Assembly: GCA_964485795.1 (NCBI GenBank) | Contig: CAZAJQ010000004.1 | Location: forward strand, 38,292-87,091 | Direction: 5' to 3' | Origin: an uncultured Gammaproteobacteria bacterium | GTDB lineage: Bacteria; Patescibacteriota; Patescibacteriia; VMEV01; CAZAJQ01 | DNA length: 48,800 nucleotides | In this document: one piece after another, positions 17,187-48,202 of the stretch | Position numbering within the stretch: position 1 is the stretch's first letter | Layout: the number at the start of each line of letters is the position of its first letter | The notes under the pieces: model-generated | Told to the model about the DNA's origin: nothing | What the model saw: the letters and a program-made list of their open reading frames with translations, nothing else | Database searches by the model: none | Made by a program: the position numbers and the translations under genes

Positions 17187-17190
17187 GAAA

Positions 17191-17328
17191 TTATGGTGTG
17201 AGACGTTTTCTGCCTTTTGCTCTTCGACGTCGCAGGACATTTTTCCCTCCCGGTTTTCTCATCCGAGCGCGAAAGCCATGAACACGTTTCCTCTTTTTTA
17301 CCTTGGGCTGATAAGTTCTTTTCGGCAT
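17191..17328 (-). CDS. rpmH: 50S ribosomal protein L34 (below the ORF-track length cut-off)
   Basis: Manual translation of the reverse strand gives [45 protein letters not shown], then a stop. Confidence 0.9.
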
Positions 17329-32006: not shown

Positions 32007-32061
32007 GCAAGACTGAAGAGCGCATGGCCATTCATGGGTGCCTCGTTTCAATCGTCAGCAT

Positions 32062-32445
32062 ATGATACAAAGATTTACGATCATAATATTTGCGTTAATG
32101 TCTTTTTCCGCTGTGCCGGTTTTTGCGCAAGATAAGATAAAAGTAGAAATTAAACCCGTTAAAGGGTTTGAAGCTTTTGAAAGAATTGAAACCGGAGAAG
32201 CGGTCATCACCGAAGTGGCGGTCAGGGTGGTGTCATTTATCATGGCTTTTTCGGGAGTTATCGCCATGGTTTTTGTGATTTACGGAGGCTGGCTGATTTT
32301 GCTTTCCGGAGGGAGCGAAGAAAAGATCAGCGGCGGGAAAAAAATCCTCACATGGGCGGTGATAGGACTCGCCGTGATATTCACAAGCTATGTGGTTATG
32401 AATTTTGTCGTGAATACGATTCAAAAGGGCATCACGGGAAGCTAA
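32062..32445 (+). CDS. VirB2/TrbC-like pilin paralog P2
   Basis: Signal peptide ending VFAQ. Core VIYGGWLILLSGGSEEKISGGKKILTWAVIGLAVIF. The table ORF starts at a GTG (32038). Confidence 0.7.
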   Translation: MIQRFTIIIFALMSFSAVPVFAQDKIKVEIKPVKGFEAFERIETGEAVITEVAVRVVSFIMAFSGVIAMVFVIYGGWLILLSGGSEEKISGGKKILTWAVIGLAVIFTSYVVMNFVVNTIQKGITGS

Positions 32446-32464
32446 AGACGGATGCGGTAATCAT

Positions 32465-32815
32465 ATGAAAAAAAACATTGCAATCATGCTGAGCGTTTCC
32501 ATGGCTTTGACGATGATCGGGGCGATGCTTTTGATGCCTGAAACATCGCTCGCGCAAAAGACTTTGCCAAATCCTCTTGGAGTGACCAATGTGACGGATT
32601 TTATCGTCAGGATCGTAAAATTTTCCTTGCAGATAATCGCCGTCCTGGGATTTTTGTTTTTTGTCATCGGCGGTTTTCAGCTTTTGACATCCGCGGGTAA
32701 CGATGAAAAGGTCAGTCAGGGAAAATCCACGCTGTTTTGGGCCATCGTCGGTATGGCATTAGCGCTTACAAGCTATGTGATGATTGATTTTGTCGTCGGC
32801 GCGTTTTCGAAATAA
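32465..32815 (+). CDS. VirB2/TrbC-like pilin paralog P3
   Basis: Signal peptide ending SLAQ. Core VIGGFQLLTSAGNDEKVSQGKSTLFWAIVGMALAL. Confidence 0.7.
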   Translation: MKKNIAIMLSVSMALTMIGAMLLMPETSLAQKTLPNPLGVTNVTDFIVRIVKFSLQIIAVLGFLFFVIGGFQLLTSAGNDEKVSQGKSTLFWAIVGMALALTSYVMIDFVVGAFSK

Positions 32816-32942
32816 ACGAGGGAGGGATGTTCACATGTGTTTTTTGAGAAATGCGCGAAAAAAAGTATAATGAAGGTGGAAAAATAACCGAGCTTTTTTG
32901 AGGGTTTCCTTAGAAAGGCTTCCACGAAGGGGGGTGAAAGAC

Positions 32943-33353
32943 ATGACATCAGTACAAACATTTTCAAACAAAAAAGTATTGGCAGGCATCATGAGTTTGC
33001 TTTTGGTAGCATTTATGGCGGTTCCGTTTTTCGTCGGAGCGCAGTCGGATCAGTTTGGCCTTGAATTCGGCAAAAACACAGGGCTTGGAACACGGGATCC
33101 TCGCGAGACGGTAGCCCTCGTCATCCGCATCATCATGGGATTTTTGGGCACCATCGCGATCGTGATCATCCTGCTCGGCGGATTCAAGTGGATGACCGCC
33201 GGAGGAAACGATGAAAAAGTGACGGAAGCGAGAAAATTGATCACGGCCGGCATTATCGGCTTGATCATCATTTTGTCCGCTTATGCGATTACGAATTTCG
33301 TCATCACTCAGCTTATGACGGCCACGAACGCCGGAAGAGCTCCGGGATTATAA
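32943..33353 (+). CDS. VirB2/TrbC-like pilin paralog P4
   Basis: GGGGGTG RBS 6 nt before the ATG at 32943. Signal peptide ending VGAQ. Core LLGGFKWMTAGGNDEKVTEARKLITAGIIGLIII. Confidence 0.75.
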   Translation: MTSVQTFSNKKVLAGIMSLLLVAFMAVPFFVGAQSDQFGLEFGKNTGLGTRDPRETVALVIRIIMGFLGTIAIVIILLGGFKWMTAGGNDEKVTEARKLITAGIIGLIIILSAYAITNFVITQLMTATNAGRAPGL

Positions 33354-33468
33354 TGAGGTTATGACTGCCCTGTTCGTTTTTTCGCAAAAAAAAATGATCG
33401 GGGCAGTCCCTCGAGGTTTTGGGGTGATGAATCGCCCCAAGGCTTTGAGCGAGAATCATTAATTTTCA

Positions 33469-33861
33469 ATGATCGCACCGACTATGAAAACAGCATTTCG
33501 GAAAAGCGCTTTTATCGCCTTTTTTTGTTGTTTGAGTTTTTTTGGAAGTGCCACTGTGAATGCGCAGGTGAATGTTTCGGAGCAATTGAATGTGGCGAAG
33601 ACGAAATTAAACATTACTACGTCAAGAACCCCGGAAGAAGTCGTGGGAAGCGTCATCCGCGGCGTTCTGGGATTGGTGGGAATTATCGCATTTGCGTTTT
33701 TCGTCTATGCCGGGATCCTCTGGCTGACGTCGGGCGGTGAAGAGGGAAAGATATCGGCGGCCAAAAACATCCTCAGCGCTGCGGTGATAGGGCTGATTAT
33801 CATCTTCACGGCATACGCTTTGACGAGCTTTGTCATCGACGCCCTGGTGAAAGCGACGTAA
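33469..33861 (+). CDS. VirB2/TrbC-like pilin paralog P5
   Basis: Signal peptide ending VNAQ. Core VYAGILWLTSGGEEGKISAAKNILSAAVIGLIII. Alternative start at 33484. Confidence 0.75.
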   Translation: MIAPTMKTAFRKSAFIAFFCCLSFFGSATVNAQVNVSEQLNVAKTKLNITTSRTPEEVVGSVIRGVLGLVGIIAFAFFVYAGILWLTSGGEEGKISAAKNILSAAVIGLIIIFTAYALTSFVIDALVKAT

Positions 33862-33878
33862 ATGCGGAAAATCAATCT

Positions 33879-34268
33879 ATGAAATATTTTCTTCTCAGCG
33901 GAGCATTGACGGTGATGATGACATCATTTTTTTGCGTTCTCTCACCGGTGCTTGCGCAAGGCGATTTGGGAAGTGAGGTTAAAGATAAGCTCGCAACCGG
34001 CGGGCAATCTTCCCTCCTCAAAAGCGACCGAGCTTTGAGCACCATCGTCGGCGGGATTATCAATGCGTTTTTGGCGATTGTCGGTGCGGTTTCGCTGTAC
34101 TTGTTTGTCTGGGGAGGCTTTGAGCTCCTGATGGGAGGCGGCAATGAAGAAAAGGTGTCGGCCGGCAAAGCCAAGATCAAAAACAGCGTGATCGGCCTCA
34201 TCATCGTGATCGCGGCTTATGCCATCGTGAAGTTTATCGCCGAATTTGTGCCGGCGCTTTTGAAGTGA
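33879..34268 (+). CDS. VirB2/TrbC-like pilin paralog P6
   Basis: Signal peptide ending VLAQ. Core VWGGFELLMGGGNEEKVSAGKAKIKNSVIGLIIV. Confidence 0.75.
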   Translation: MKYFLLSGALTVMMTSFFCVLSPVLAQGDLGSEVKDKLATGGQSSLLKSDRALSTIVGGIINAFLAIVGAVSLYLFVWGGFELLMGGGNEEKVSAGKAKIKNSVIGLIIVIAAYAIVKFIAEFVPALLK

Positions 34269-34273
34269 GGAGT

Positions 34274-34660
34274 ATGAAAAAATTGATAGCCAGCTTGGGA
34301 ATGATCGCCGGAGGAATAAGCATCCCTCTTTTTTCGATATTGGCTCAACCGCAGGAGGCCGAGAAAAAGCTGGAAGCATTCTCGCGGGATGTTGGAATTG
34401 GTCAAGGCGTTGGCGGACTGGATTATCAAGCCGGATCCATCATTAACTCCGTCCTCAGTCTTGTCGGTCTCATTTTTCTTATCGTCGTCATCTATGCCGG
34501 ATTTCAGTGGCAGACGGCCGGCGGGAATGAAGAAAAGGCACAGGCATCGCTCAAAATGTTCATTTCCGCGATTTTGGGTTTGGTCATTGTTCTGGGGGCG
34601 TATATTTTCGTGAATTCGCTTTTGGGCGGCTTGATCGGCGCGGTGACGGGTACGCCGTAA
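34274..34660 (+). CDS. VirB2/TrbC-like pilin paralog P7
   Basis: GAGGAG RBS. Signal peptide ending ILAQ. Core IYAGFQWQTAGGNEEKAQASLKMFISAILGLVIV. Confidence 0.75.
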   Translation: MKKLIASLGMIAGGISIPLFSILAQPQEAEKKLEAFSRDVGIGQGVGGLDYQAGSIINSVLSLVGLIFLIVVIYAGFQWQTAGGNEEKAQASLKMFISAILGLVIVLGAYIFVNSLLGGLIGAVTGTP

Positions 34661-34679
34661 AGGAGATCCTCGATAAATA

Positions 34680-34965
34680 GCGCTATCGTTGGGGCAGACC
34701 TCTGTGTCTGCCCCAACGATAGCGCCGTTGAGTGTGTGTAACCCCAATTCGCCAAGACGACCCCGAGTCTGTCACGCCTCTGTTGAGTGTCTGCAGTGAC
34801 CACGCCGTTGAGTTTTGCCACCCCCGTCGAATTTTGCCGGGACAATACGCCCCTGAATGTCGGAACGCCGCCGCCGCTGGTCAGCCGCGAACCGTTTTCT
34901 CTCCACCGTTCGTCGAGGCGTGGTGTGCTGTTGGGGGAGATACATAGGTCTCCCCCAACAGCACA
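34680..34965. repeat. Non-coding insert bounded by two related long hairpins (H1 34680-34725, H2 34924-34965)
   Basis: H1 has a perfect 20 bp stem: GCGCTATCGTTGGGGCAGAC, loop CTCTGT, GTCTGCCCCAACGATAGCGC. H2 has a 17 bp stem: TGTGCTGTTGGGGGAGA, loop TACATAGG, TCTCCCCCAACAGCACA. Both stems share GTTGGGG-AGA. Their apices are near reverse complements of each other, so the hairpins are in inverted orientation. Three GCC(G/TCT)TTGAGT direct repeats lie between them. Confidence 0.7.
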
Positions 34966-34986
34966 TCGTTTTACTCTCTCCTATCT

Positions 34987-35364
34987 ATGCATCGACTTTC
35001 CCGTATCACCACAATTTTATTCTCCGCGATTTTCATTTTTGCCATGCCTTTTTCGATATTGGCGCAGGATAACTTAAAATCACAGGTATTGGATCCGCTT
35101 GGACAAACAACAGATGCCGCTGGCTATGATCGCGCAATTTCCATCACCGCGGCCATCGGGAATCTCACCAAGGCTTTTTTGGCGGTATTCGGTGCGTATT
35201 TTTTGTTTCGAACCGTGTATGCCGGGTATCTTTGGTTCATGGCAAAGGGCAATGAGGAGCAGGTGCAGCAAGCCAAGGAAATTCTCAAAGGCGCGGTCTT
35301 TGGCGTCATCGTTGCGTCCATGGCGGGTGTGATCATCGCTCTTGTGACGAATCTTGTGGCGTGA
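34987..35364 (+). CDS. VirB2/TrbC-like pilin paralog P8
   Basis: Signal peptide ending ILAQ. Core VYAGYLWFMAKGNEEQVQQAKEILKGAVFGVIV. Confidence 0.75.
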   Translation: MHRLSRITTILFSAIFIFAMPFSILAQDNLKSQVLDPLGQTTDAAGYDRAISITAAIGNLTKAFLAVFGAYFLFRTVYAGYLWFMAKGNEEQVQQAKEILKGAVFGVIVASMAGVIIALVTNLVA

Positions 35365-35516
35365 CCCCCTTCGATAGGCTCATGCTTCGGCAGGCTCAGC
35401 ATGACACAGGGGTCGACGCGGGACATGGGGGTGTGATCATCGTTCTGGTTACAAATTTTGTGGTGTGACCCCCTTCGGCACGCTCAGGGTGACAGGGGGC
35501 GTCGCAGGACATGGGG
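35327..35516 (+). repeat. Direct duplication (104 bp unit, then an 86 bp unit) that includes the last 38 nt of P8
   Basis: Unit 1 (35327-35430) and unit 2 (35431-35516) both read GTGTGATCATCG.TCT.GT.AC.AAT.TTGTGG.GTGACCCCCTTCG...GCTCAG..TGACA..GGG..CG.CG.GGACATGGGG. Unit 2 keeps an in-frame GVIIVLVTNFVV-stop, compared with GVIIALVTNLVA-stop in P8. Confidence 0.75.
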
Positions 35517-35560
35517 CTCCCCGCGCGTACCTTGTTCAACCCTCCTTGTCATTGTTTCCT

Positions 35561-35599
35561 TCCCTTGTCTCCCTTCGACAAGCTCAGGGTGACAAGGGA
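35561..35599. repeat. Copy of the dispersed CCTTCGRCARGCTCAGGGTGACA motif, in a hairpin context
   Basis: TCCCTTGTC, T-CCCTTCGACAAGCTCAGGGT, GACAAGGGA (9 bp stem). The same motif is at 35385-35410 and 35471-35498, and in all four repeats of the parS island. Confidence 0.7.
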
Positions 35600-35663
35600 A
35601 GGACGCGGTACTAGGGGTGTTACAGGTAGAGGGTCAAATTTGATAAAGGTGTAATTTTTTTTC

Positions 35664-36080
35664 ATGAAACCGGTTCGATTTATTATTTCAGCCGTCGTAT
35701 TGGGAGTGCTGGTGACTCCCTTGCTTTTGTTTGCGCAAGGGGAGGCTCCAAAGGGTGTGAATCAGGTCAGAAAAGGGTTGAATGAGGCGCTGGAAAAGGC
35801 CGAGATACCGGGCAAGAGCACATTGGCGGAAACAACGGCGAATCGTGGAGAAGAGTTGGCGAGCATCATGGGGACGATCATCAATATTGCCGTCGGAATT
35901 TTGGGTGCGGTCACTTTTCTTTTCATACTCTATGCCGGCTACCTCTGGTTCACCGCCAAAGGCAATGATGAACAGGTGGTCAAGGCCAAGGATATCTTTG
36001 CAGACGCGGTGATCGGACTCGTATTGATACTGGTTTCAGGCTTTTTGGCATCCTTGGTTTTGAGAATATTCACGAGGTAG
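35664..36080 (+). CDS. VirB2/TrbC-like pilin paralog P9
   Basis: Signal peptide ending LFAQ. Core LYAGYLWFTAKGNDEQVVKAKDIFADAVIGLVLI. Confidence 0.75.
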   Translation: MKPVRFIISAVVLGVLVTPLLLFAQGEAPKGVNQVRKGLNEALEKAEIPGKSTLAETTANRGEELASIMGTIINIAVGILGAVTFLFILYAGYLWFTAKGNDEQVVKAKDIFADAVIGLVLILVSGFLASLVLRIFTR

Positions 36081-36109
36081 CGAGCAAGGCGTTACGAGTA
36101 TGTCACACA

Positions 36110-36147
36110 GGATAGACCTATGTAGCGATAAACACATAGGTTTATCC
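36110..36147. repeat. Intergenic hairpin H3
   Basis: GGATAGACCTATGT, loop AGCGATAAAC, ACATAGGTTTATCC (14 bp stem with one G-T pair). It contains the CTATGT/ACATAG hexamers that form the loops of the other hairpins. Confidence 0.6.
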
Positions 36148-36184
36148 CTACAGAGGTTTATTTCTGCGGATTACGTTAAACGTT

Positions 36185-37468
36185 ATGTCTCCAAAAAAAA
36201 TCATTCCCTGTACGCTTATCGGAATCACCCTCGTGATGCCTTTTTTCGCGTCGGCGCAGATCATCAATAAAGATACGGGAAGAGCGGCGGAGAGGCTTTT
36301 GAACAAGGGATTGGAAAAAGCGGAGCTTGCCACCGGGTCGAATATTGAGTTTGCAAAGCGTATCGGCAATGTCATCAATCTCGCCATCGGCATTTTCGGC
36401 GTTGTTTTGCTCGGACTGCTGATATACGCGGGGTATCTCTGGACCAATGCGCGGGGCAATGAAGAGGAGGTAACGCAAGCGAAGAATATCATCAAAGAAG
36501 CGGTAATAGGGTTGTTTTTGGTTTTCATTGCTGGTGGACTGGCCACGGCTACCACAAGCTTTTTAGGCACGGAAACACTCAGCAACAAAGTGTTTCTTGA
36601 TCAGCTGGAGCTAGAATCGCAAGTGAGTAGAATTTCTGGCTTGAAGTTTGAGGATTTCGTGTATCTCCAGACAACGGCCGCTCGAATTATCAATTTCGTT
36701 CTCGGCTTACTCGGAGTGATCGCCCTTTGTCTTTTCATCTATGCCGGCTATCTTTGGCTCTCGGCCGGAGGCAATGAAGAAAAGGTTTCGACGGCAAAAA
36801 GCCTCTTATCGCAGACCATCACCGGCTTTCTCGTGGTTTTCGTATCCGCGACCTTGATCAATATCGTCCTGCAAATGGGACCGATCCAAGAAAAAGTTGC
36901 CGGCCTGGCTATTGTCGCCAAAGAAGTGGGGCTCGATGTCGGCACCATCGAAAGCGCTTTTGTCCAGTTTGGACGAGTGCTCAATTTCATCCTCGGGCTT
37001 ATCGGGGTGATTATCCTCGTTCTCTATATCTATGCCGGGTATCTTTGGGCTTCGGCGGGGGGCAATGAAGAAAAGGTGGGGCAGGCGAAAAAGATTTTTG
37101 CGGAAACGATTTTGGCGACATTCTTTATTTTCGTTACGGGAATTATTGTTTCTATAGCACTGAACACTTCAAAGATTAAGCAAGAATTGGCAGTCACGGG
37201 ATTGGATATTGTCAAGATTGAGACTGACTTACAAACCGGAGATATTATTTATGCAGGTGCTCGAGTCGGAAGTGTTCTGAATTTTCTTGTCGGCATGCTT
37301 GGCCTAGTAGCCTTTGTCCTTATCCTCTACTCCGGCTATCTCTGGGCTACGGCCGCAGGAAATGAAGAGCAGGTTACCAAAGCGAGGAGAATTTTGATAG
37401 AATCCGTAGGAGGGATGACTTTGGTGTTTTTGACGGGGTATATCGTGAATATCGTGTTGCAGCTGTGA
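36185..37468 (+). CDS. Four-domain concatenated VirB2/TrbC-like pilin P10 (predicted signal peptide + 8 TM)
   Basis: Signal peptide ending ASAQ. Four complete helix-loop-helix units with loops YAGYLWTNARGNEEEV (nt 36425), YAGYLWLSAGGNEEKV (36740), YAGYLWASAGGNEEKV (37031) and YSGYLWATAAGNEEQV (37328), joined by linkers of about 35-45 aa. Confidence 0.75.
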   Translation: MSPKKIIPCTLIGITLVMPFFASAQIINKDTGRAAERLLNKGLEKAELATGSNIEFAKRIGNVINLAIGIFGVVLLGLLIYAGYLWTNARGNEEEVTQAKNIIKEAVIGLFLVFIAGGLATATTSFLGTETLSNKVFLDQLELESQVSRISGLKFEDFVYLQTTAARIINFVLGLLGVIALCLFIYAGYLWLSAGGNEEKVSTAKSLLSQTITGFLVVFVSATLINIVLQMGPIQEKVAGLAIVAKEVGLDVGTIESAFVQFGRVLNFILGLIGVIILVLYIYAGYLWASAGGNEEKVGQAKKIFAETILATFFIFVTGIIVSIALNTSKIKQELAVTGLDIVKIETDLQTGDIIYAGARVGSVLNFLVGMLGLVAFVLILYSGYLWATAAGNEEQVTKARRILIESVGGMTLVFLTGYIVNIVLQL

Positions 37469-37602
37469 GAAGGTAAGTGAAATTTGGCATACAAGCAAAT
37501 ACACTTTTTGAGCGATACGTTCTTGGGTTACTAGCTGCAGGCTAGTTTTGAAGAGTGTCAGGTAGCGATTATTGGAAAAAAAATCAAGAGCATGCACTTT
37601 AT

Positions 37603-37983
37603 ATGAAAAAAATAATTGCCATTTTTTTTACCGCATTCCTTGTTTTCACTCCCCTATTCGCTTCGGCGCAGCTGCTCAAAAAAGGAGAAGAGCAGCAGAC
37701 CAAGGAAGCGTTTGAAGCGGTGACGGGCGAGATCGGTCTTGCTACCGGCAATGAAGTGATGCTGGGGAGGACGATTTCGCAGATCATCAATTTTGCGCTC
37801 GGGCTTTTGGGCGTGGTGATGCTTGTCATCACCATCTACGGCGGATATCTGTGGTTTTCCGCCGCCGGCAATGACGAACAGGTTTCGAAAGCGAAAAGTG
37901 TCATGACGCAAGCGGTTATCGGGCTTGCGATTATTTTTTTGGCGGCCCTGATCATTAATGTTGTGCTGAATGCGGGAAGGTAG
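37603..37983 (+). CDS. VirB2/TrbC-like pilin paralog P11
   Basis: MKKIIAIFF start. Signal peptide ending ASAQ. Core IYGGYLWFSAAGNDEQVSKAKSVMTQAVIGLAII. The table ORF opens at 37555. Confidence 0.75.
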   Translation: MKKIIAIFFTAFLVFTPLFASAQLLKKGEEQQTKEAFEAVTGEIGLATGNEVMLGRTISQIINFALGLLGVVMLVITIYGGYLWFSAAGNDEQVSKAKSVMTQAVIGLAIIFLAALIINVVLNAGR

Positions 37984-38040
37984 TCGCAGGTATATTTTCC
38001 AAGCGAAAGGAAAAATTCCCGTTAATTTTTTTTCCACCGT

Positions 38041-38721
38041 ATGAAGAATATTTTCTTGGCAATTTTCCTCGCAATGATATTTGCCTTATCCCCCGTCGTT
38101 GCTTTCGCTCAGCTGAAGTCGGCCAATACGAATCGCATCCAGCAGGAGCTGAGTCAAGTGACGGGATTGCCTTCCGGAGGCACGAATCCGGCGACGGCAT
38201 TGGGAGGGACGCTCGGAAATATCGTTACCGTTTTTTTCAGCCTGCTCGGCACCGTGGCCTTGGGCTATATCCTCTATGCCGGATATCTCTGGTTTTCCGC
38301 GGCCGGCAATGAGGAGCAGGTGGATGCGGCCAAGAAAACATTGTACCGAGCCGTGATGGGTTTGCTCGTGATCATGCTGTCGTATGCGATAATTACGGTG
38401 GTTCTGAACGTCTTTGGAAAAGGGCCGGGGTCGGAGGAGGCGGCGAGGCAGAGAGAGGAAGAAGAGCTGCAGAAAAATCTGGAAAAAGATTTTCCAGTGT
38501 CAGCCGAGCCTTCAGATGTTGAAAAAGCGAAAGCGGAAATCGCGCAGATAATGAAAGAGATTCAGCAAATCGATGAAAGCATTGTTGATTATGAACGACT
38601 CAGAGATACTGCAGTAACCCCTTTGTTTGCAGAACGTTGGCAAAATGAAATCAATCAATTACAGCAAAAGAAGGAGGCTTTAATGGAAAGAGCAGTCGTT
38701 TTATACGGAAAATTACCATAA
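38041..38721 (+). CDS. VirB2/TrbC-like pilin paralog P12, with charged coiled-coil C-terminal extension
   Basis: Signal peptide ending AFAQ. Core LYAGYLWFSAAGNEEQVDAAKKTLYRAVMGLLVI. Then about 95 aa rich in E/K/Q (EEAARQREEEELQKNLEK...NEINQLQQKKEALMERA). Confidence 0.75.
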   Translation: MKNIFLAIFLAMIFALSPVVAFAQLKSANTNRIQQELSQVTGLPSGGTNPATALGGTLGNIVTVFFSLLGTVALGYILYAGYLWFSAAGNEEQVDAAKKTLYRAVMGLLVIMLSYAIITVVLNVFGKGPGSEEAARQREEEELQKNLEKDFPVSAEPSDVEKAKAEIAQIMKEIQQIDESIVDYERLRDTAVTPLFAERWQNEINQLQQKKEALMERAVVLYGKLP

Positions 38722-38765
38722 GAAATTATAAAGATGTAACCTTTGCATTAAGGATAAAGGGGTCT

Positions 38766-39269
38766 ATGAAATATTTACGGGCAATCTCTTTTACGATAAT
38801 ATTTTTATTTGGTATTGGGTATATTGGGACATTACAAGCGCATGCCCAAGGCGGCGCCGTGTTTGATGCGTTCGGGAAAAAAGCGGGGCTGGAACGCACG
38901 GTACGGGTGCCATTGCAGGTTCGCATCGCGGAAATCATAGCCATGTTGCTGAATTTCGTCGGCATGATCGCGATCATTGTCATCCTCTACGGCGGATTCG
39001 TCTACATGACTTCTCAAGGTGAAGATGAAAAAATCAACCAATCCAAGCAAATCATCAAAAACGGGATATTGGGAATCCTTGTCGTCATGATGTCCTATGG
39101 AATCGCACAATTCACCATCAACTCCATACGTTTCGGCTCGGGCGATCAATGCTCCCCCGGTCAGGTGGCGCAAGACAGCCTCGCGAATTTTCTGACGCTC
39201 GGACTGTATCGCGCCCCCTGCATGGAAAGAGATATCCCGATAGAGTATTTTTTCAATTCAGAAACGTAG
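38766..39269 (+). CDS. VirB2/TrbC-like pilin paralog P13, with short Cys-containing C-terminal extension
   Basis: Signal peptide ending AHAQ. Core LYGGFVYMTSQGEDEKINQSKQIIKNGILGILVV. Tail of about 50 aa with 2 Cys. Confidence 0.7.
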   Translation: MKYLRAISFTIIFLFGIGYIGTLQAHAQGGAVFDAFGKKAGLERTVRVPLQVRIAEIIAMLLNFVGMIAIIVILYGGFVYMTSQGEDEKINQSKQIIKNGILGILVVMMSYGIAQFTINSIRFGSGDQCSPGQVAQDSLANFLTLGLYRAPCMERDIPIEYFFNSET

Positions 39270-39321
39270 CGAGATGCTTCTGGGGATAGTTGCCCTCATC
39301 GGCTGTGATATAATCAATAGT

Positions 39322-39705
39322 ATGAAACGAATTTCATCCGGCATATTGTTTTTCTTCATCATTTTGAGCTCATTTCTTTTCACCCGCTCCCACTCAATGG
39401 CGGCCGCCGATCTGGGACAGCTTCTCAATAACGCCGCGGTCGCCTATGATACGAGTGCAGGTGCGGCGGATCCCCTTGCCATCGTGGGTATGGTCATCGT
39501 CACCTTGCTGGGTTTTCTCGGCATAGCGGCGGCCGGTTACATGATCTACGGAGGATATATATGGCTCATGGCGCGAGGCAATGAAGAGGAGGTGAAGCGA
39601 GGGAAAAAAATCATCTGGAATGCGACGGTGGGTATGGTCATCATCCTCTCGGCATACGCTTTATCAAATTTCATCTTGAGCGGCATACAAACTGCCACAC
39701 AATAA
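39322..39705 (+). CDS. VirB2/TrbC-like pilin paralog P14
   Basis: MKRISSGILFF start. Core IYGGYIWLMARGNEEEVKRGKKIIWNATVGMVII. The table ORF opens at 39274. Confidence 0.75.
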   Translation: MKRISSGILFFFIILSSFLFTRSHSMAAADLGQLLNNAAVAYDTSAGAADPLAIVGMVIVTLLGFLGIAAAGYMIYGGYIWLMARGNEEEVKRGKKIIWNATVGMVIILSAYALSNFILSGIQTATQ

Positions 39706-39714
39706 TACATCACT

Positions 39715-40098
39715 ATGAAAAAGATCTTTTCTTTTTTAATCGCATCAAGCATTGCGGTTATGAGTTTTTCAATATCAGTAGCGCCGGTCGGAGCCGTTGA
39801 GCTTTTGGAAAATTTGAATAAAGCAGCAAATGCGTCGTTTGAAACGACAAAAAACGACCCCATTGAAATCGTCTCTACGGTCATCAATACTTTGCTGGCG
39901 TTTCTCGGGATCGGCGCCACGGCACTGGTCATTTACGGCGGGTTCATCTGGCTTACGGCGCGAGGCAATGAAGAAGAAGTGAAAAAAGGTCAGACCATCA
40001 TACGCAATGCCATCATCGGGCTCATCATCATCATGAGTGCCTACGCTCTCGCGAATTTCATCATCACAAATCTTTCCACTGCCACGGGAGTGAAATAG
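39715..40098 (+). CDS. VirB2/TrbC-like pilin paralog P15
   Basis: Core IYGGFIWLTARGNEEEVKKGQTIIRNAIIGLIII. Signal peptide ends VGAV rather than AQ. Confidence 0.75.
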   Translation: MKKIFSFLIASSIAVMSFSISVAPVGAVELLENLNKAANASFETTKNDPIEIVSTVINTLLAFLGIGATALVIYGGFIWLTARGNEEEVKKGQTIIRNAIIGLIIIMSAYALANFIITNLSTATGVK

Positions 40099-40187
40099 GT
40101 TTCGCCTCGCGCGCTCTGAAGGCTTTGCATAAGACACCGCGTCCGATATTCTCATCACCGAGAGTCCTCGCGATGAATCTCTTCACT

Positions 40188-40577
40188 ATGAAAAAAATAT
40201 TTTTGTGCATGTTTGTTGTATTATCGACTTTCGTTTCTTTTCACTCCACCCCCGCCTTTGCCGCCGTGGATATCTCTTCGGAGCTGAAAAAGGCGGCCGC
40301 CGAATCGTATAGCGAGCCAAGGGGTGGAGCCATCGATATCGTGGGGCGAGTTATCGGAGGGCTGTTCGGATTTCTCGGCATCGGCGCCGCGGCACTCATG
40401 ATTTACGGCGGATACGTATGGTTTGGAGCGCAGGGAAACGAGGAGCAGGTAAAAAAGGCCAAGGATATCATCCGTGACGCTTTTATCGGGCTTATCATCC
40501 TTACGAGCGCTTATGCGTTGACGAGGTTTGTGATCGATCAGGTGCAGAAAAGAATCATCAATCAACAGACGAAGTAA
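40188..40577 (+). CDS. VirB2/TrbC-like pilin paralog P16
   Basis: MKKIFLCMF start (alternatives at 40173 and 40125). Core IYGGYVWFGAQGNEEQVKKAKDIIRDAFIGLIIL. Confidence 0.75.
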   Translation: MKKIFLCMFVVLSTFVSFHSTPAFAAVDISSELKKAAAESYSEPRGGAIDIVGRVIGGLFGFLGIGAAALMIYGGYVWFGAQGNEEQVKKAKDIIRDAFIGLIILTSAYALTRFVIDQVQKRIINQQTK

Positions 40578-41689: not shown

Positions 41690-41980
41690 TCATGCTTTCT
41701 TGTATCTCAATCCATGAATATCCTGAAGAAATTCAAGTGTAGCTTGAACTGATGAGTTATCAGTATTTTTAAGGACAACGCGATCTCCATACTTACGAAT
41801 GAGAGGCGTTAAAAATTCATCTCCCCATGAAGGTGCGAAGCTCATCACGTTCAAGAAATCGATTTCAATGGGTTCATTTTCCACCAGCGTCGCAAAACTT
41901 GGCTGCATGGCAAGGTATGATTCTCTTCCAAGTTGTCTGGATGTCAAAATATTTCCAAATTTTTTTAATTCAATAATCAT
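41690..41980 (-). CDS. STAS-like DUF4325-type protein
   Basis: 96 aa. LTSRQLGRESY...IEIDFLNVMSFAPSWGDEFL matches the pattern I recall for DUF4325. A 4-nt ATGA overlap couples it to the upstream GHKL gene. Confidence 0.6.
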   Translation of the reverse strand: MIIELKKFGNILTSRQLGRESYLAMQPSFATLVENEPIEIDFLNVMSFAPSWGDEFLTPLIRKYGDRVVLKNTDNSSVQATLEFLQDIHGLRYKKA

Positions 41981-42726
41981 ATTCTCCCGTCAAAATTAAT
42001 GAGGGCGATACACCCTGGAATTTTTTTTTCACTTATTTTTATTTGTAATGAATCACTCTTCTTGCTATTCAAGTTGAGGACGGCGTTTCCGGATTGAAAG
42101 TGCAATCTCATATTTTTACTCCCGACAACACTTCTCACATACTTTAAACCATTACCGCGATTTTCGGGAGCCCTGCCGGAGAGTACTTCTGAAAATGCCG
42201 TTTTCAGAGCTTCAGCGTCGCTTTGAAGTTCTGGCTTTACCTGTCGAAGCGTTTGTAAAATTCCACGGCCGCGATCTGCCAGAACAATGCTTCTTTGTTC
42301 AATCTTATAAGCAAAAAAAACGCCTGCAATATCCGGCCAGTTTCCGATATTGTGATCGAATGAATTATTTCCTATTTCTCCAGCGATAGCAATGAGCAGT
42401 GGAGACATTTCTTGCAATGCAGGAACGTTCGACAGTTGAGAGCCAAATGCTGAAAGTCGCGCGTTGAATATCGAAGCATCCGGACAAAAATAATCATTCA
42501 ATGGTTCAAATGCACTTTGAGATGAACTCCATCGCATCGCATATGCAAAGAGATCGATCGATCGTAAATAACTTTCCAAATCTGATATGCTGTACATCCG
42601 ATGCTTCATTGTCCCGTGTGCGCGCGGAAGCGGCGGAATTTTTTTTGTTCGATCCCAACGACGCAAAGTGTCGACGGAGACACCAAGCATTTTTGCCGCA
42701 AGCCCGATGGTCAGTGCTTTATCCAT
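41977..42726 (-). CDS. MerR/excisionase-type HTH fused to a GHKL (HATPase_c-like) ATP-binding domain
   Basis: N-terminus LTIGLAAKMLGVSVDTLRRWDR. C-terminal N-box-like EIGNNSFDHN, G1-like DRGRGI, G2-like NRGNGLKYV. Confidence 0.65.
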   Translation of the reverse strand: MDKALTIGLAAKMLGVSVDTLRRWDRTKKIPPLPRAHGTMKHRMYSISDLESYLRSIDLFAYAMRWSSSQSAFEPLNDYFCPDASIFNARLSAFGSQLSNVPALQEMSPLLIAIAGEIGNNSFDHNIGNWPDIAGVFFAYKIEQRSIVLADRGRGILQTLRQVKPELQSDAEALKTAFSEVLSGRAPENRGNGLKYVRSVVGSKNMRLHFQSGNAVLNLNSKKSDSLQIKISEKKIPGCIALINFDGRI

Positions 42727-43495: not shown

Positions 43496-44431
43496 TCACT
43501 TCCAATCAATCATGATTGCCGGCTTGCCGGATTTTTCTTGCAAATATTTATACGTTTCCAGCGCGGCTTTGGCCCCCTCTCCAGCGGAAATCACCACCTG
43601 CTTATAGGGGATATTCGTGACATCTCCGCAGGCGAACACACCTTCACGCGACGTGCGGCATCGGGTGTCAATCTGAATTTCCCCTTTTTCCGTAAGCTGT
43701 ACAAAATTTGATAAAAATTTTGTAGCCGTAGAAAAACCTATTTTTTCAAAAACATAATCGCAGAGAATCTCCTTTTCCTTATTGTCTGAAGAGATAATGA
43801 GCTTCTCAAGGGTTTTTTCCCCGCGCATGCCTAAAACGGTGGTATCATAGTGAATCTCAATATTTTTTTGCTTCCACACTTTTTCAATGAGAACGGCTTC
43901 CGCAGAGAAACTTGTTTTCCTGTGGATGAGATGAACCTGCTTGGCGTGCATGGAGACAAAAAGAGCCGCTGCAAGTGCCGAATTCCCGCCGCCTACGACG
44001 ATAGTCACCGTTCCCTTGATCCGGCGTTCCAAGGGTTGCGGGTCATGAAACACGGAAATGCCGAAAAACTTTTTTTCTCCGGGCACCTCGAGGCTTTTGG
44101 GGGTGAGGCCAAATGAAAAAATTATAGATTTTGCATCAAATAAGCCGATACTCGTATTCACCGAATGGACACCCTTTGATTTTTCAAGAATGGAGAGGAT
44201 TTCCGCGCATACGATCTTCCCTCCATACTTGATCGATTGATCTCGCATGTTCTCTATGAGGTTTGGGCCGGATATGATCGGAATCCCGGGATAATTTTCA
44301 ATGCGATCCGTGGTGGAGGTTTGCCCTCCGATGTCCTTGGTGATGATAAGGGTGGAGAGGTGGCGTCGCCCGGTAAAAATGCTTGCCGTAAGTCCCGCCG
44401 CTCCTGCGCCGATGATGATAACGTCGTACAT
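43496..44431 (-). CDS. Thioredoxin-reductase-like FAD/NAD(P) oxidoreductase lacking the redox-active CxxC
   Basis: GxGxxG (IIIGAGAAGLTA), second Rossmann motif VVGGGNSALAAALF, ACGDV near the C-terminus. The position of the canonical C-A-T-C-D-G reads GISVFHDPQP. Confidence 0.8.
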   Translation of the reverse strand: MYDVIIIGAGAAGLTASIFTGRRHLSTLIITKDIGGQTSTTDRIENYPGIPIISGPNLIENMRDQSIKYGGKIVCAEILSILEKSKGVHSVNTSIGLFDAKSIIFSFGLTPKSLEVPGEKKFFGISVFHDPQPLERRIKGTVTIVVGGGNSALAAALFVSMHAKQVHLIHRKTSFSAEAVLIEKVWKQKNIEIHYDTTVLGMRGEKTLEKLIISSDNKEKEILCDYVFEKIGFSTATKFLSNFVQLTEKGEIQIDTRCRTSREGVFACGDVTNIPYKQVVISAGEGAKAALETYKYLQEKSGKPAIMIDWK

Positions 44432-44644
44432 AGAGATATTTATAGAGTCAGTATAGCCTTATTTGTCAGGAACTTGAAGAAGTAAGGAGGGATGGATTTT
44501 TTTGATGTGATTATTAAGAAAATTATAGAATATTAAATTCAAAATAAAACAATTCCTATGGCATGTTTCGCGTGAATAGTGATTTAATATCTTGCGTATT
44601 CCATAAAATTAACAAGAATTTATAAAAAATTTCACTGCATGAAA

Positions 44645-44660
44645 TGTTTCACGTGAAACA
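44645..44660. promoter_or_regulatory. parS site 1
   Basis: TGTTTCACGTGAAACA is a perfect match to the 16-bp ParB-binding palindrome consensus TGTTNCACGTGAAACA. Confidence 0.8.
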
Positions 44661-44907
44661 TTTTGACGGGGGGGGGTGCTGACGAGTCCTGTCTTCCTTC
44701 GGCAGGCTCAGGGTGACAGGAGGGGCGTGTAAGAGGAGAAATAAACAGGGAGGAAGTGGAGGGAGGAACACATAGGTTCCTCCCTCCACTTCCTAGGGTG
44801 TCAGCCCTCATGCTCGGAGTTAATGATGTTTTTGTGCAAGACATGATGTTGATAGCGATGCTAACGGCGGGTTGTAACCCGCCGTTAGCCGTGGAGTAGG
44901 CATGAAA
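44661..44907 (+). repeat. parS-associated structured repeat E1
   Basis: TTTTGACG + G9 run, then TGCTGACGAGTCCTGTCTTCCTTCGGCAGGCTCAGGGTGACAGGAG. Perfect 18 bp hairpin at 44752-44793 (GGAAGTGGAGGGAGGAAC, ACATAG, GTTCCTCCCTCCACTTCC). Extra 14 bp palindrome at 44860-44889 (GCTAACGGCGGGTT-GT-AACCCGCCGTTAGC). Confidence 0.8.
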
Positions 44908-44923
44908 TGTTTCACGTGAAACA
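44908..44923. promoter_or_regulatory. parS site 2
   Basis: TGTTTCACGTGAAACA, perfect. The extended flank GCATGAAA...TTTT is identical to that of site 1. Confidence 0.8.
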
Positions 44924-45065
44924 TTTTACGAGGGGGGTGCTGACGGGTTCTGTCTTCCTTCGACAGGCTCACCCTTCGGCAGGCTCAGGGTGACAGGGGG
45001 GACGTGTAAGGGAAAGGGATAAATGGGTAGGAATGAACCTCTGTGTTCATCCCTTCCTCCAAGAA
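44924..45065 (+). repeat. parS-associated structured repeat E2 (shorter variant)
   Basis: TTTTACGAGGGGGGTGCTGACGGGTTCTGTCTTCCTTCGACAGGCTCA, then a duplicated CCCTTCGGCAGGCTCAGGGTGACAGGGGGG, then GACGTGTAAGGGAAAGGGATAAATGGGTAGGAATGAAC-CTCTGT-GTTCATCCC. Confidence 0.75.
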
Positions 45066-45081
45066 TGTTTCACGTGAAACA
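45066..45081. promoter_or_regulatory. parS site 3
   Basis: TGTTTCACGTGAAACA, perfect. Confidence 0.8.
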
Positions 45082-45164
45082 TTTTTACGATTGATTCATT
45101 TGATTAGATTGGTATACTGGAAATAGGAATTCATAGAGAGTTGTTGTTTAGGGGAGGCAAAGTC

Positions 45165-45560
45165 ATGAGTGAATATCTGAATGTTCCTATTAAAATCACG
45201 GTGAAAAGGGTTGAAGATGGATGGTTTGATGGCTATATTGACATCATGAGGAGGAGATTTCAATTTCATGTGGGATTGGCTCTTTCAGCGGAGGCATTTT
45301 TGCAGGCGCATTTTTTAAATCAATGCACCGAGCATTTCATGTATGAGCATAGTTGTATTGTTTTCCATGATGAGACTATCAATGATCATGCAATTGTAAA
45401 AGATGTGCTTTTTCAGATCATTCTTCCGACGGTATTATGGTATGCATATAATATTGACGGATATGATGCAGGTATAGCGAATCTTATCTATTATGATGAT
45501 GAGAGAGAATGTGAAGTCACTGCAAAAGATTTTCAAACCCTTGCCAAGGCCCTTTTATAA
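45165..45560 (+). CDS. Hypothetical soluble protein embedded between parS sites
   Basis: GGGGAGG RBS 7 nt before the ATG. 131 aa with no recognisable motif. Followed by a clean terminator. Confidence 0.55.
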   Translation: MSEYLNVPIKITVKRVEDGWFDGYIDIMRRRFQFHVGLALSAEAFLQAHFLNQCTEHFMYEHSCIVFHDETINDHAIVKDVLFQIILPTVLWYAYNIDGYDAGIANLIYYDDERECEVTAKDFQTLAKALL

Positions 45561-45562
45561 AA

Positions 45563-45586
45563 AACCTGATGAAGTCAGGTTTTTTT
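45563..45586 (+). terminator. Intrinsic terminator
   Basis: AACCTGA, TGAAG, TCAGGTT, followed by TTTTT. It runs directly into parS site 4. Confidence 0.7.
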
Positions 45587-45601
45587 GTTTCACGTGAAAC
45601 A
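45586..45601. promoter_or_regulatory. parS site 4
   Basis: TGTTTCACGTGAAACA, perfect. Confidence 0.8.
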
Positions 45602-45776
45602 TTTTGACGGGGTATTGTTGACGGGTACTGCTCATCCTTCGGCATGCTCAGGATGACAGGGGGGCGGGGACGTGTAAGGGAGGGATAAACAAGATGGATG
45701 GGTAAGGAGGAACACACAAGTTCCTCCCTACCCATCCATCCTTCCTTCCCTATGTGTTCATCCCTACTTCCAGAAA
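45602..45776 (+). repeat. parS-associated structured repeat E3
   Basis: TTTTGACGGGG...CATCCTTCGGCATGCTCAGGATGACAGGGGGGCGGGGACGTGTAAGGGAGGGATAAACAAG. Hairpin at 45696-45737 (GGATGGGTAAGGAGGAAC, ACACAA, GTTCCTCCCTACCCATCC). Tail CCTTCCTTCCCTATGTGTTCATCCCTAC. Confidence 0.8.
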
Positions 45777-45792
45777 TGTTTCACGTGAAACA
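45777..45792. promoter_or_regulatory. parS site 5
   Basis: TGTTTCACGTGAAACA, perfect. Confidence 0.8.
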
Positions 45793-45900
45793 TTTCGTAA
45801 ATTAAAAGGGAGCTTCTCTATTGGATGCTCCCATGGACCAGAATGAAAAGTTTTTGACGTTACTTCTTCTCATGACGAAGGTGCGCTTCTCTCATTTTCA

Positions 45901-46266
45901 TCAGGAGAACATTTTCCCCAGACGGTAGAGAAGGGTCTGCCTTTCCAACCCCTTGAGAAGAAATTTCGCACCGATTTGCTTTGCTTGAGCGCGTAAACTA
46001 TCCTCGTTTGAGGCCGAATAAAGACAGATGAGGATGCCTTTCCCCTTAAGAGTATCGGAGTAAATACTTGCGATATCGTTTCCCTTCATACCCGGCATAT
46101 TGAGATCGATCAGGAGCAGATCAAAGGCGCTTTGCTTCGCAAAAATGAGCTTATTCGCTTCCGCCATATTTTCCACCCATGAAATCACATAATCAGTACC
46201 CGCAAGTTGATATACCAGGAGCTCATAGGAGTCCCGTGAGTCGTCGATCAGTAAAATACGTTTCAT
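45901..46266 (-). CDS. Single-domain response regulator (CheY-like receiver, no output domain)
   Basis: MKRILLIDDSRDSYELL...DLLLIDLNMPGMKGNDI...ICLYSAS...KGL contains the DD, phospho-acceptor D, S/T and K positions of receiver domains. The ORF opens at 46344, inside parS site 6. Confidence 0.8.
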   Translation of the reverse strand: MKRILLIDDSRDSYELLVYQLAGTDYVISWVENMAEANKLIFAKQSAFDLLLIDLNMPGMKGNDIASIYSDTLKGKGILICLYSASNEDSLRAQAKQIGAKFLLKGLERQTLLYRLGKMFS

Positions 46267-46343
46267 AAAACTTCCTCCTGAAAATAACGCGAATAGTTCC
46301 CACATGGAATTGTAGGTTTTTTTATAAAAAAAGCAAAGAGTCA

Positions 46344-46359
46344 TGTTTCACATGAAACA
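46344..46359. promoter_or_regulatory. parS site 6 (one mismatch)
   Basis: TGTTTCACATGAAACA. The central CACGTG is changed to CACATG. Confidence 0.6.
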
Positions 46360-46540
46360 TTTTGATGTGGGACGTGCAGGTGACGGGTCCTGTCTTCCTT
46401 CGACAGGCTCAGGATGACAGGGGGGCGGGGACGTGTAAGGGAGGGATAAACAAGAAGGATGGGTAGGGAGGAACATACAAGTTCCTTCCTACCCATCCAT
46501 CCATCCTTCCTTCCCTATGTGTTCATCCCTACCTTCTTCC
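46360..46540 (+). repeat. parS-associated structured repeat E4 (no closing parS)
   Basis: TTTTGATGTGGG...GGGTCCTGTCTTCCTTCGACAGGCTCAGGATGACAGGGGGGCGGGGACGTGTAAGGGAGGGATAAACAAG. Hairpin at 46457-46498 (GGATGGGTAGGGAGGAAC, ATACAA, GTTCCTTCCTACCCATCC). The tail matches E3. Confidence 0.8.
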
Positions 46541-46823
46541 ATAAAGTTAAGAGGACGTTAAAGTGGATATACTGTGGAAAAGTAGCACACTAGAATGTTT
46601 TTTTATACTTTAGTCAAATTTATCACTTTCATATCATGATGCATCAAATATCCATTTCATCGTCGATCATGATATTCTGCACTTTTCAGGGAGATAGTTT
46701 TTTTGGCTTATTGAAAGCAATTTTTTTGAGTACACCAGCATTGTTTCGAAGCGTGAAACGATGTCGCTTGGAGAAGGAATGGCATGATTTTGAAGGATAT
46801 TTATTTTCGGTTTTAAAATTCAT

Positions 46824-46850
46824 TTATCCACAGGTCTTGTGGATGGATAA
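46824..46850. promoter_or_regulatory. Inverted DnaA-box-like pair
   Basis: TTATCCACA, GGTCT, TGTGGATGGATAA. The TCCACA-N5-TGTGGA inverted repeat resembles the pair at 3026-3046. Confidence 0.4.
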
Positions 46851-46930: not shown

Positions 46931-48202
46931 TCACTTCGTATAGAGAAGCGGGTTTTTTCTGGTTCCATTGATGACAACCTCGAAGTGAAGATGCGACCCG
47001 GTGGACCATCCCGTGGATCCCATGCGGCAGATGGTCTCTCCTCGGGAAACTTCTTGACCGACATTGACGTAGAGTTCACTGCAATGAGCATATCTGGTTT
47101 GCATACCGTTGCCGTGATCAATGACGATATGAAGTCCATAGCCCGTTCCCCAGCCGGAACGCGTTATTTTTCCGGCCTCCGCGGCGAAGATCGGAGAGGT
47201 GAAGTCGCCGTCGATATCGAGTCCGGTATGACGCCAGTTGAAATACTGTGTGATCACACGACCGGGAGTGGGCCAAAGAAGGACGGAATCGCTTCTTTCC
47301 GTGGAACGGGGAGGCACGAGAACTTTTTTGATTTTCGCGACCTTGCTTTCCGGCGCGGTGAGCGATGGAGCCGGCTTGCGACCCCGTGGAATGATGAGTG
47401 TGTCTCCGGCGATAAGGTCATCGCTGGAAAAAAGGTTATTGAAGCTCAGGACATCCTCCTCCTGTGCATCGTATTTTTCAGAGATGCCTTTGATTGTATC
47501 GCCCTTCTGCACTTTATGCGACACACCGGTTACCGGAAGAATACGGAGTTTTTGACCCAGTTTTATGACGCTTTGGTAGGAGAGATTATTTTCCCACAGC
47601 AACGTATTGGTCGTGACTCCAAAGGTTGCGGCTATGCTGCTGACCGTGTCTCCGGTTTGAACGGTATAAATTTCGATTTTTTTTCTTTCCGTTTGCGCGG
47701 TATCGGTGGCGAGAATTTCCGGTTTTACGACGGCACCTCCTTGTGTGATGGCTGGTGTTCCTTCTGGCGTTTGAAATTGTACGGGTTCCAAAGATGGCAA
47801 AGTTGATACTCCCGACGTTTGTGAAAGCAGCTGCTGCGTTTGTTCCGGAAGACGGTTGGAAGCGAATTCCTCGATCTCGACGTTTTCATTGAGATAGATG
47901 AATATCATGCTTTTTTTTCCTATCTCGCTGTTTCCTTTCGCTTGAATGCTGTCGGCCATAATAATGATCGCTAGGAACACAATGGTAATGTGAACGAGTG
48001 ATTTTGAATGAAATGGGATAAGGATTTTATTTTTTGCCGGCGCAAAAATTTTATAAATCGGTTTGCGGAATGCGAGATACAATTTATAAATATAGAAAAT
48101 TATTTTTCGAAGAAAAAAACGATAGACAAGTCGAAGAGGGGAGATGATGATTTTTGAAAATATCCATACAAAAATATCCAGCGCTTTTTTAAAAAGACGC
48201 AA
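46931..48202 (-). CDS. Membrane-anchored LysM-domain M23 metallopeptidase
   Basis: N-terminal TM helix. Two LysM repeats (YTVQTGDTVSSIAATFGVTTNTLLWENNL and HKVQKGDTIKGISEKYDAQEEDVLSFNNL). M23 motifs HTGLDIDG and GSTGWSTGSHLHFEV. The table start is a TTG. Confidence 0.9.
   Translation of the reverse strand: MRLFKKALDIFVWIFSKIIISPLRLVYRFFLRKIIFYIYKLYLAFRKPIYKIFAPAKNKILIPFHSKSLVHITIVFLAIIIMADSIQAKGNSEIGKKSMIFIYLNENVEIEEFASNRLPEQTQQLLSQTSGVSTLPSLEPVQFQTPEGTPAITQGGAVVKPEILATDTAQTERKKIEIYTVQTGDTVSSIAATFGVTTNTLLWENNLSYQSVIKLGQKLRILPVTGVSHKVQKGDTIKGISEKYDAQEEDVLSFNNLFSSDDLIAGDTLIIPRGRKPAPSLTAPESKVAKIKKVLVPPRSTERSDSVLLWPTPGRVITQYFNWRHTGLDIDGDFTSPIFAAEAGKITRSGWGTGYGLHIVIDHGNGMQTRYAHCSELYVNVGQEVSRGETICRMGSTGWSTGSHLHFEVVINGTRKNPLLYTK

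Follow-up and report, generated by a model that had tools for sequence, protein, structure and literature searches.

How clusters of parS, the palindromic sites bound by ParB, arise is an open question in the ParABS field (PMC7333895). It is raised here by a stretch of 48,800 nt (positions 38,292 to 87,091, forward strand, of contig CAZAJQ010000004.1, GenBank assembly GCA_964485795.1), which is called the window below. Its source is a deep-branching groundwater bacterium of the Patescibacteria (Candidate Phyla Radiation, CPR). An original prediction, made from the letters alone, had described six consensus parS palindromes packed into 1.7 kb, interleaved with copies of a repeat (E) and two small genes, and had proposed that this island concentrates the loading of ParB and condensin. 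What does such an island do, is its packing unusual, and how did its sites multiply? Our analysis indicated that the island is probably a compact chromosomal centromere, located to the right of the replication origin at a distance of 25-27 kb, in which six ParB nucleation sites surround two small genes.

parS sites in the origin region

Five perfect copies of TGTTTCACGTGAAACA were found, and a sixth site, TGTTTCACATGAAACA, differed from them by a single central G-to-A change (G9A), all at the places predicted (Table 1). The 16-bp palindrome fits TGTTNCACGTGAAACA and is the exact chromosomal parS consensus, as had been claimed; every copy reached past 16 bp, to ∼18-22 bp, in the form (A)ATGTTTCACGTGAAACAT(TT). 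The occurrence was strongly non-random, with six matches at up to two mismatches against 0.05 expected, and none of 100 dinucleotide-preserving shuffles got to six. The other 47 kb of the window held no match at this cut-off. Because loosening the cut-off to three mismatches added only one unrelated match, at 10706, all parS sites of the window fell in the 1.7-kb island; the scattering of the 16-mer at comparable density that had been named as a counter-indication was not seen in the window. Two possible parS relics flank the island, one on either side. The left one, TGTTTCGCGTGAATAG, which was not recovered in the scan at up to three mismatches, may be a decayed parS site, and the split palindrome on the right may likewise be a relic.

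The position of the island also agreed with a centromere. The window was found to contain the chromosomal origin region, with the gene order yidC-rnpA-dnaA-dnaN, a cluster of DnaA boxes and a minimum of the cumulative GC skew at ∼20 kb. The distance of 25-27 kb given above is measured from this probable oriC, and the predicted value of about 25 kb therefore held, dnaA, dnaN, the five boxes and the skew minimum all lying near 17-20 kb. Four more 9-mers resembling DnaA boxes (one of them perfect) were clustered at 3026-3157, 16 kb from dnaA, in an AT-rich spacer that separates a trigger-factor gene from a dksA-like gene. Since it is away from the GC-skew turn, this second cluster is unlikely to be oriC; it may titrate DnaA or have a regulatory role. 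Close to the island, a perfect DnaA box (TTATCCACA) faces an imperfect inverted copy (TTATCCACAGGTCTTGTGGATGGATAA) 5 nt off at 46824-46846, ∼300 nt right of the last E copy, and a one-mismatch box was seen 250 nt upstream of this pair, at 46573-46581.

A ParB nucleation and loading centre is the function best supported by the sequence being the exact consensus, by its closeness to the origin and by the conservation of parS. The same palindromes could instead be operators of another DNA-binding protein, such as a Noc/KorB-type ParB paralogue or a different dimeric regulator, controlling trxB, the orphan gene ORF131 and the response-regulator gene, with no centromeric role. Operators would be in keeping with the intergenic location of all six sites, with the 9 nt that separate the end of parS3 from the -35 element of a promoter-like site downstream, with parS6 being close upstream of the response-regulator start, and with no ParB having been seen in the window. 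Nevertheless, the sequence is the pan-bacterial chromosomal consensus itself and not a variant of it, parS4 and parS5 lie downstream of genes, and the clustering near the origin is like that of known centromeres, so that an operator function was given little probability.

The island could be followed in Logan contigs from four independent groundwater-metagenome runs, where contigs of the source organism reached at most 4 kb. The region was covered in all four with zero differences, and contig breaks fell only inside the E repeats; one contig of 2,549 nt ran from trxB to E3. An assembly artefact was rejected because the four runs reproduced the region independently. The summed contig depth at parS was ∼100-125 against a baseline of ∼17, consistent with six copies.

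The partition genes were sought within the window, which makes up 48.8 kb of the 87,091-nt contig, and several results weigh against the centromere. Pfam scans of ∼50 open reading frames (nearly all non-nested ones of at least 110 aa) revealed no ParA, ParB, SMC or ScpAB domain. Nor did phmmer, run with a Spo0J query against the six-frame translation, find anything, and the original statement that the window lacks parAB was thus borne out by both methods; the same query recovered ParB-like reading frames at E = 1e-55 in other loci. No close relative was available for a comparison of gene order, ORF131 being without homologue and the nearest TrxB only 47-48 % identical, and no RNA run was found that contained the island region. 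Lastly, when the contigs of the four runs (X1-X4) were compared with 44600-45800, at least eight further parS contexts that are absent from the window appeared; they come from the same metagenomes and are not assignable to the source genome. In some of them two parS sites lie a few tens of bases apart or less, with inserted stretches of 7 to ∼35 letters. With regard to the partition genes, a set of parS loci from public metagenomes (described below) was informative: a ParB-like reading frame was present in the fetched stretch of only 54 of the 120 loci listed, implying that the absence of parAB beside a parS cluster is common.

The E repeat and the growth of the cluster

Along the sequence the island reads trxB, parS1-E1-X-parS2-E2-parS3, ORF131, parS4-E3-parS5, the response-regulator gene, parS6-E4 and a LysM-M23 peptidase gene, X being an extra segment between E1 and parS2. 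Apart from this segment, the arrangement is the one originally described. The four E bodies share one orientation, and each starts directly after a parS with a short spacer, TTTTGACGG or TTTTACGAGG. A first hairpin (A) is then formed around CCTTCGRCAKGCTCAGGRTGACAGG and is followed by G-rich sequence that includes GGGGACGTGTAAGGGA. Next comes hairpin B, a long palindrome whose core measures 19-21 bp and whose predicted fold extends to ∼45 bp in E3 and E4, and the body closes with the right end CCTnTGTGTTCATCCCT. The predicted folds of E1, E3 and E4 were far stabler than those of shuffled sequences (z = -5.5 to -7.7, either strand), but that of E2 was not. The G+C content of E was 52-58 %, compared with ∼41-46 % in the surrounding DNA.

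Several identities were considered for E and rejected. Indels of 5 and 16 nt and the deletion of a hairpin break every reading frame, therefore E is non-coding. In Rfam, only the tRNAs of the window reached the gathering score, leaving E and its hairpin unmatched, and at E-values up to 10 there were only generic microRNA-hairpin matches on the long palindrome. An array of the TIGR-Tas type, in which dual repeats form ∼36-nt units beside a Nop-domain tas gene (PMC12045711), did not agree with the 140-190-nt units, the lack of a spacer-repeat periodicity and the lack of a Nop-domain tas gene in the Pfam scans.

The junctions between parS and E are repeated from copy to copy. The left junction, parS followed by the TTTTGACGG-like or TTTTACGAGG spacer, is common to all four units, and the right junction, GTGTTCATCCCT..TCCA.GAA followed by parS, is common to E2 and E3. 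The left flank GCATGAAA is common to parS1 and parS2, and TTTTTACGA after parS3 corresponds to the beginning of an E, which would suit a truncated unit starting there. These shared junctions implied that parS and E were duplicated together, at least in part. E3 and E4 were 91 % identical over the whole aligned body (93 % over 118 nt), and the other pairs were 71-80 % identical. Amplification by duplication of a parS-carrying element, as first proposed, is thus a fair reading, and the simplest history would be repeated local duplication or conversion of the parS-E unit, followed by divergence, indels and the loss of some E bodies.

The two parts of the unit have not diverged alike. Whereas the E bodies differ from one another by 9-29 % and 12.5 % of their aligned positions depart from the column majority, only one change was found in the 96 positions of the six parS sites. 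At the rate of E about twelve changes would be expected (binomial P = 4e-5). The near-perfect parS within a diverged carrier points to selection on parS, or to conversion biased by selection, which would keep the sites at consensus while the carrier drifts.

The unit was also compared with mobile repeats. If parS-E(-parS) were a selfish repeat, similar to a miniature inverted-repeat transposable element (MITE) or a repetitive extragenic palindromic (REP) sequence, its ends would merely coincide with parS and its copies would be kept by propagation. E2 and E3 are indeed flanked by identical 20-22-nt palindromes resembling terminal inverted repeats, units occur in three successive intergenic regions in one orientation, and the REP-like hairpin within E recurs in many phyla and elsewhere in the window. 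However, the identical palindromic ends are not accompanied by target-site duplications, and no direct repeats flank E2 or E3, as judged by reading the sequence. All four E copies lie within 1.9 kb and none was found elsewhere in the window. The contig depth at the centre of E3 was ∼1-1.5 times the baseline (about single-copy), and that of parS was about six-fold, so that E is not a mobile repeat dispersed at high copy number. Together with the far better conservation of parS than of E, and with the hairpin being without parS in the other places described in the next paragraph, these observations made a selfish repeat highly improbable.

The hairpin within E carries the minus-strand motif GTCA-N3-TGAGCCTGTCGAA-N3'. 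Three or four more copies were found at 35368-35600, between pilin genes and without parS. When the 25-nt core of hairpin A was compared with one-genome-per-species contigs, at least 119 matching stretches (L003-L121) were obtained, from Bacteroidota, Eremiobacterota, Chloroflexota, Nitrospirota/Nitrospinota, Acidobacteriota, Verrucomicrobiota, Peribacteria and others. Only 27-44 nt were shared with E in these loci, the flanks being unrelated, and none of the 119 listed contained parS. A composite pattern of parS, N{25,55} and the core gave 0 matches in metagenome contigs. The association of the hairpin with parS thus appears to be specific to the island, and the hairpin itself to be a general REP-like intergenic element that happens to sit in E and does not explain parS.

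The hairpin nevertheless has properties of its own. Among 143 unique loop-anchored instances, each of the three stem pairs was of the Watson-Crick kind in 89-97 % and occurred as two to four pair types, but pairing largely collapsed in a control in which the 3' partner was slid by one position. The GTCA was kept in 124 of these instances, and the stem was extended to GTCA:TGAC in ∼37 %. Most copies lay between genes, frequently as tandem or inverted groups, and their placement was biased: 142 of 193 lay downstream of a co-directional gene and 133 of 194 upstream of an opposite-strand gene. At least 17 hairpin loci were seen in Fibrella rubiginis. Classical REPs have a GTAG tetranucleotide before an imperfect palindrome and are species-specific. 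The E spacer resembles REPs and bacterial interspersed mosaic elements (BIMEs) in being intergenic, in the imperfect palindrome after a conserved tetranucleotide (GTCA here), in the tandem or inverted grouping and in the bias to gene 3' ends; it differs in that, across many phyla, the loop and GTCA hardly vary, and in its link to parS, unique to the island. No REP-associated tyrosine transposase (RAYT) was seen, though no search aimed at one was made. The hairpin is absent from Rfam, and its sequence strings gave only unrelated primers and sequences in the literature searched. It may be an undescribed cross-phylum structured element that acts as RNA or single-stranded DNA.

A further idea joins these features. 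The parS-E unit could be a self-amplifying centromere cassette, in which the structured spacer with its REP-like hairpin promotes local duplication, conversion or transposition and so carries parS into neighbouring intergenic regions. We regard this as unlikely, but if it were true, it would provide a concrete mechanism for the rise and growth of origin-proximal parS clusters.

Compact parS arrays in other genomes

The original prediction held that packing six sites into one island is atypical, because chromosomes usually scatter them over tens to hundreds of kb. This premise was not borne out: scattered sites are only one of the known chromosomal patterns, and compact clusters occur in Myxococcus, in Caulobacter and in metagenomes. 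Its interpretation stood in kind, as a probable ParB-type centromere cluster grown by duplication of parS units, and failed where the packing was taken as exceptional.

In Myxococcus xanthus, 22 parS sites are found in ∼3 kb, 4 kb from parA and ∼35 kb from oriC (Iniesta 2014, PMC3899335). The island is similar in being a compact array of consensus-like 16-bp sites tens of kb from oriC, and the densities are of the same order (one site per ∼140 bp in Myxococcus, one per ∼290 bp here). Myxococcus differs in having more sites, the consensus TGTTCCACGTGGAACG, adjacent parAB genes and ParB binding shown by electrophoretic mobility shift assay (EMSA), whereas the island, known from sequence alone, has no parAB in the window and its sites are interleaved with two genes and a structured repeat. 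In Caulobacter crescentus, the five strongest sites lie within 5 kb, ∼8 kb from ori (Tran et al. 2018, PMC5815017), and it was proposed that close spacing compensates for limited spreading of ∼2 kb per site (PMC5815017). Both systems have several close origin-proximal sites that form, or in the island would form, one joint ParB loading zone; the Caulobacter sites are embedded in essential or high-fitness-cost genes and differ among themselves in sequence and affinity, in contrast to the intergenic sites of the island, five of six of which are perfect.

Compact arrays were also frequent in environmental DNA. Scanning public metagenome contigs for two perfect parS sites 121-181 nt apart yielded at least 120 loci, 19 of which had six or more sites (at most one mismatch) within 1.7 kb, with maxima of 15, 14 and 10. 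The three loci with seven or more sites that were inspected (L135, L145 and L233) were dnaA/dnaN or dnaA...gyrBA origin regions, and in L154 and L145 the sites lay on repeated units of ∼125-170 nt. From their sequences, such dense arrays appear to be uncharacterised compact centromeres. Like the island, they have the exact 16-mer, are origin-linked and non-coding, often carry the sites on repeated spacer units (60-170 nt) and often have no adjacent parB. They differ in their simple AT-rich spacers, and none of those inspected had a G-rich E with a long hairpin or interleaved genes.

Arrays of this kind are also typical of plasmid centromeres, which raised the possibility that the island was left behind by an integrated plasmid or prophage, with ORF131 and the response regulator as cargo. 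The F plasmid sopC consists of twelve 43-bp repeats, each with an inverted repeat, and plasmid arrays in general resemble the island in having tandemly amplified units with one palindromic ParB-family site each. The lack of any homologue of ORF131 and the raised G+C content of E would also suit foreign DNA. Plasmid arrays, however, have site sequences of their own and lie beside partition genes, whereas the island has the chromosomal consensus and a position compatible with the permissive origin zone. Genes for an integrase, replication or partition were not found nearby, nor was there any similarity to 72,556 plasmids or 50,697 phages. A plasmid or prophage remnant was accordingly considered extremely improbable.

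Neighbouring genes and proposed action of the centromere

The features of the island, its surroundings and the metagenome loci used for comparison are collected in Table 1.

Table 1. Positions of features in the window and, for the rows beginning with L, in metagenome loci; (r), read from the sequence.
Feature	Position	Strand	Remarks
yidC	15744-16532		
rnpA	16821-17240		
dnaA	17474-18889		
DnaA-box cluster	19043-19249		five boxes in the dnaA-dnaN spacer; probable oriC, reference for the island distance
dnaN	19337-20452		
T4SS_pilin (PF18895) array	31314-40577	+	fourteen consecutive genes; one (36185-37468) with four domain copies
trxB	43496-44431	-	
parS-like TGTTTCGCGTGAATAG	44564-44579		four mismatches; ∼65 nt left of parS1 (r)
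parS1	44645-44660		perfect TGTTTCACGTGAAACA; extended palindrome AAATGTTTCACGTGAAACATTT; left end of E1; 214 nt upstream of trxB start
E1 body	44661-44800	+	spacer TTTTGACGG..., hairpin A, G-rich stretch, hairpin B
E1 hairpin A	44688-44720		CCTGTC...GACAGG; pan-phylum motif at 44696-44720
E1 hairpin B	44751-44794		perfect 19-bp stem
Hairpin GCTAACGGCGGGTT-GT-AACCCGCCGTTAGC	44860-44889		GC-rich, perfect; in segment X (r)
parS2	44908-44923		perfect; left flank GCATGAAA; left end of E2
E2 body	44924-45065	+	short variant; core motif 44973-44997; 16-nt partial duplication 44957-44972; GGGGACGTGTAAGGGA at 44998-45013; short hairpin 45030-45052 in place of long hairpin B
parS3	45066-45081		perfect; preceded by E right junction ...GTGTTCATCCCTTCCTCCAAGAA; right flank TTTTTACGA resembles E start
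ORF131	45165-45560	+	131 aa, orphan; between parS3 and parS4
parS4	45586-45601		perfect; left end of E3; overlaps T-run of ORF131 terminator
E3 body	45602-45776	+	core motif 45636-45660; GGGGACGTGTAAGGGA at 45666-45681
E3 hairpin B arms	45693-45713, 45720-45740		predicted fold to ∼45 bp (roughly 45664-45769)
parS5	45777-45792		perfect; preceded by E right junction ...GTGTTCATCCCTACTTCCAGAAA; just downstream of terminator-like hairpin of response-regulator gene
Response-regulator receiver gene	45901-46266	-	stand-alone, 121 aa, CheY/CpdR-like single domain; between parS5 and parS6
parS6	46344-46359		TGTTTCACATGAAACA (G9A); left end of E4; 78 nt upstream of response-regulator start codon
E4 body	46360-46534	+	core motif 46397-46421; GGGGACGTGTAAGGGA at 46427-46442; no recognisable parS after its right end
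E4 hairpin B arms	46454-46474, 46481-46501		
Hairpin motif copies in E	44696-44720, 44973-44997, 45636-45660, 46397-46421	-	strand on which the motif reads
Split palindrome TGTTTC-GAAGC-GTGAAAC	46742-46759		both parS half-sites intact; centre 3 nt longer (r)
LysM-M23 peptidase gene	46931-48202	-	
L135	1044-2027		15 perfect parS in 1 kb, just upstream of dnaA
L145	1749-2705		7-8 sites (as L233) just past gyrA, dnaA...gyrBA cluster
L233	11456-12957		7-8 sites (as L145) just past gyrA, dnaA...gyrBA cluster
L154	3352-4029		dense perfect parS array; parS in 90-nt repeat units, 91 % identical
L244	27-194		five parS sites, exact 38-nt period

ORF131 has a Shine-Dalgarno sequence, the promoter-like site next to parS3 mentioned above (45091-45118) and a terminator formed by a hairpin and a T-run (45561-45587). 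It had no homologue among 5.8 billion proteins and no Pfam or NCBIfam match, and a single-sequence AlphaFold2 model gave no confident structure (predicted local distance difference test score, pLDDT, of 41.7). The best TrxB homologues outside the organism itself came nearly all, where named, from Patescibacteria. Since parS3 and parS6 both closely precede likely promoters, it may be speculated that ParB bound there affects the expression of ORF131 and the response-regulator gene.

Other genes of the window were observed in passing. The fourteen-gene T4SS_pilin paralogue array is of a type typical of CPR bacteria. An apparent SOS mutagenesis-type cassette (6849-9179) consists of a Y-family polymerase gene (6849-8255) and a LexA-like S24 peptidase gene (8604-9179) beside it, with a possible small reading frame (8173-8526) between the two. 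Two thymidylate-kinase-family genes (9471-10076 and 12704-13321) lie on opposite strands less than 3 kb apart, and a 249-aa protein, in which an N-terminal MerR/excisionase-type helix-turn-helix is followed by two-thirds of the chain with no domain assigned, is encoded at 41977-42726, ∼2 kb left of the island.

For the island as a centromere, the following mode of action is proposed from ParABS biology (PMC7333895). ParB dimers bound to cytidine triphosphate (CTP) would bind each 16-bp palindrome, close as sliding clamps and spread over a few kb. Six close loading sites would raise the local rate of ParB loading and give a single dense partition complex, which would be segregated by ParA, if present, and would load SMC condensin beside the origin. 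The rationale proposed for Caulobacter, tight spacing that compensates for short spreading, would apply to the island as well. The cluster would have grown as a parS-E unit of ∼175-260 nt was locally duplicated or converted; within this unit, E would be a structured G-rich spacer made of a short cross-phylum hairpin motif and then a long palindrome.

In its exact consensus, its nearness to the origin and its compact clustering, all of which are documented elsewhere, the island is expected biology, and denser arrays are frequent in metagenomes. A search of the open literature found nothing on chromosome segregation in this group of Patescibacteria, and the island would place a canonical ParB-type centromere in this deep-branching lineage. 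It would also be a clean example of parS sites that were multiplied with a carrier repeat and yet are under selection, which bears on why parS sites cluster.

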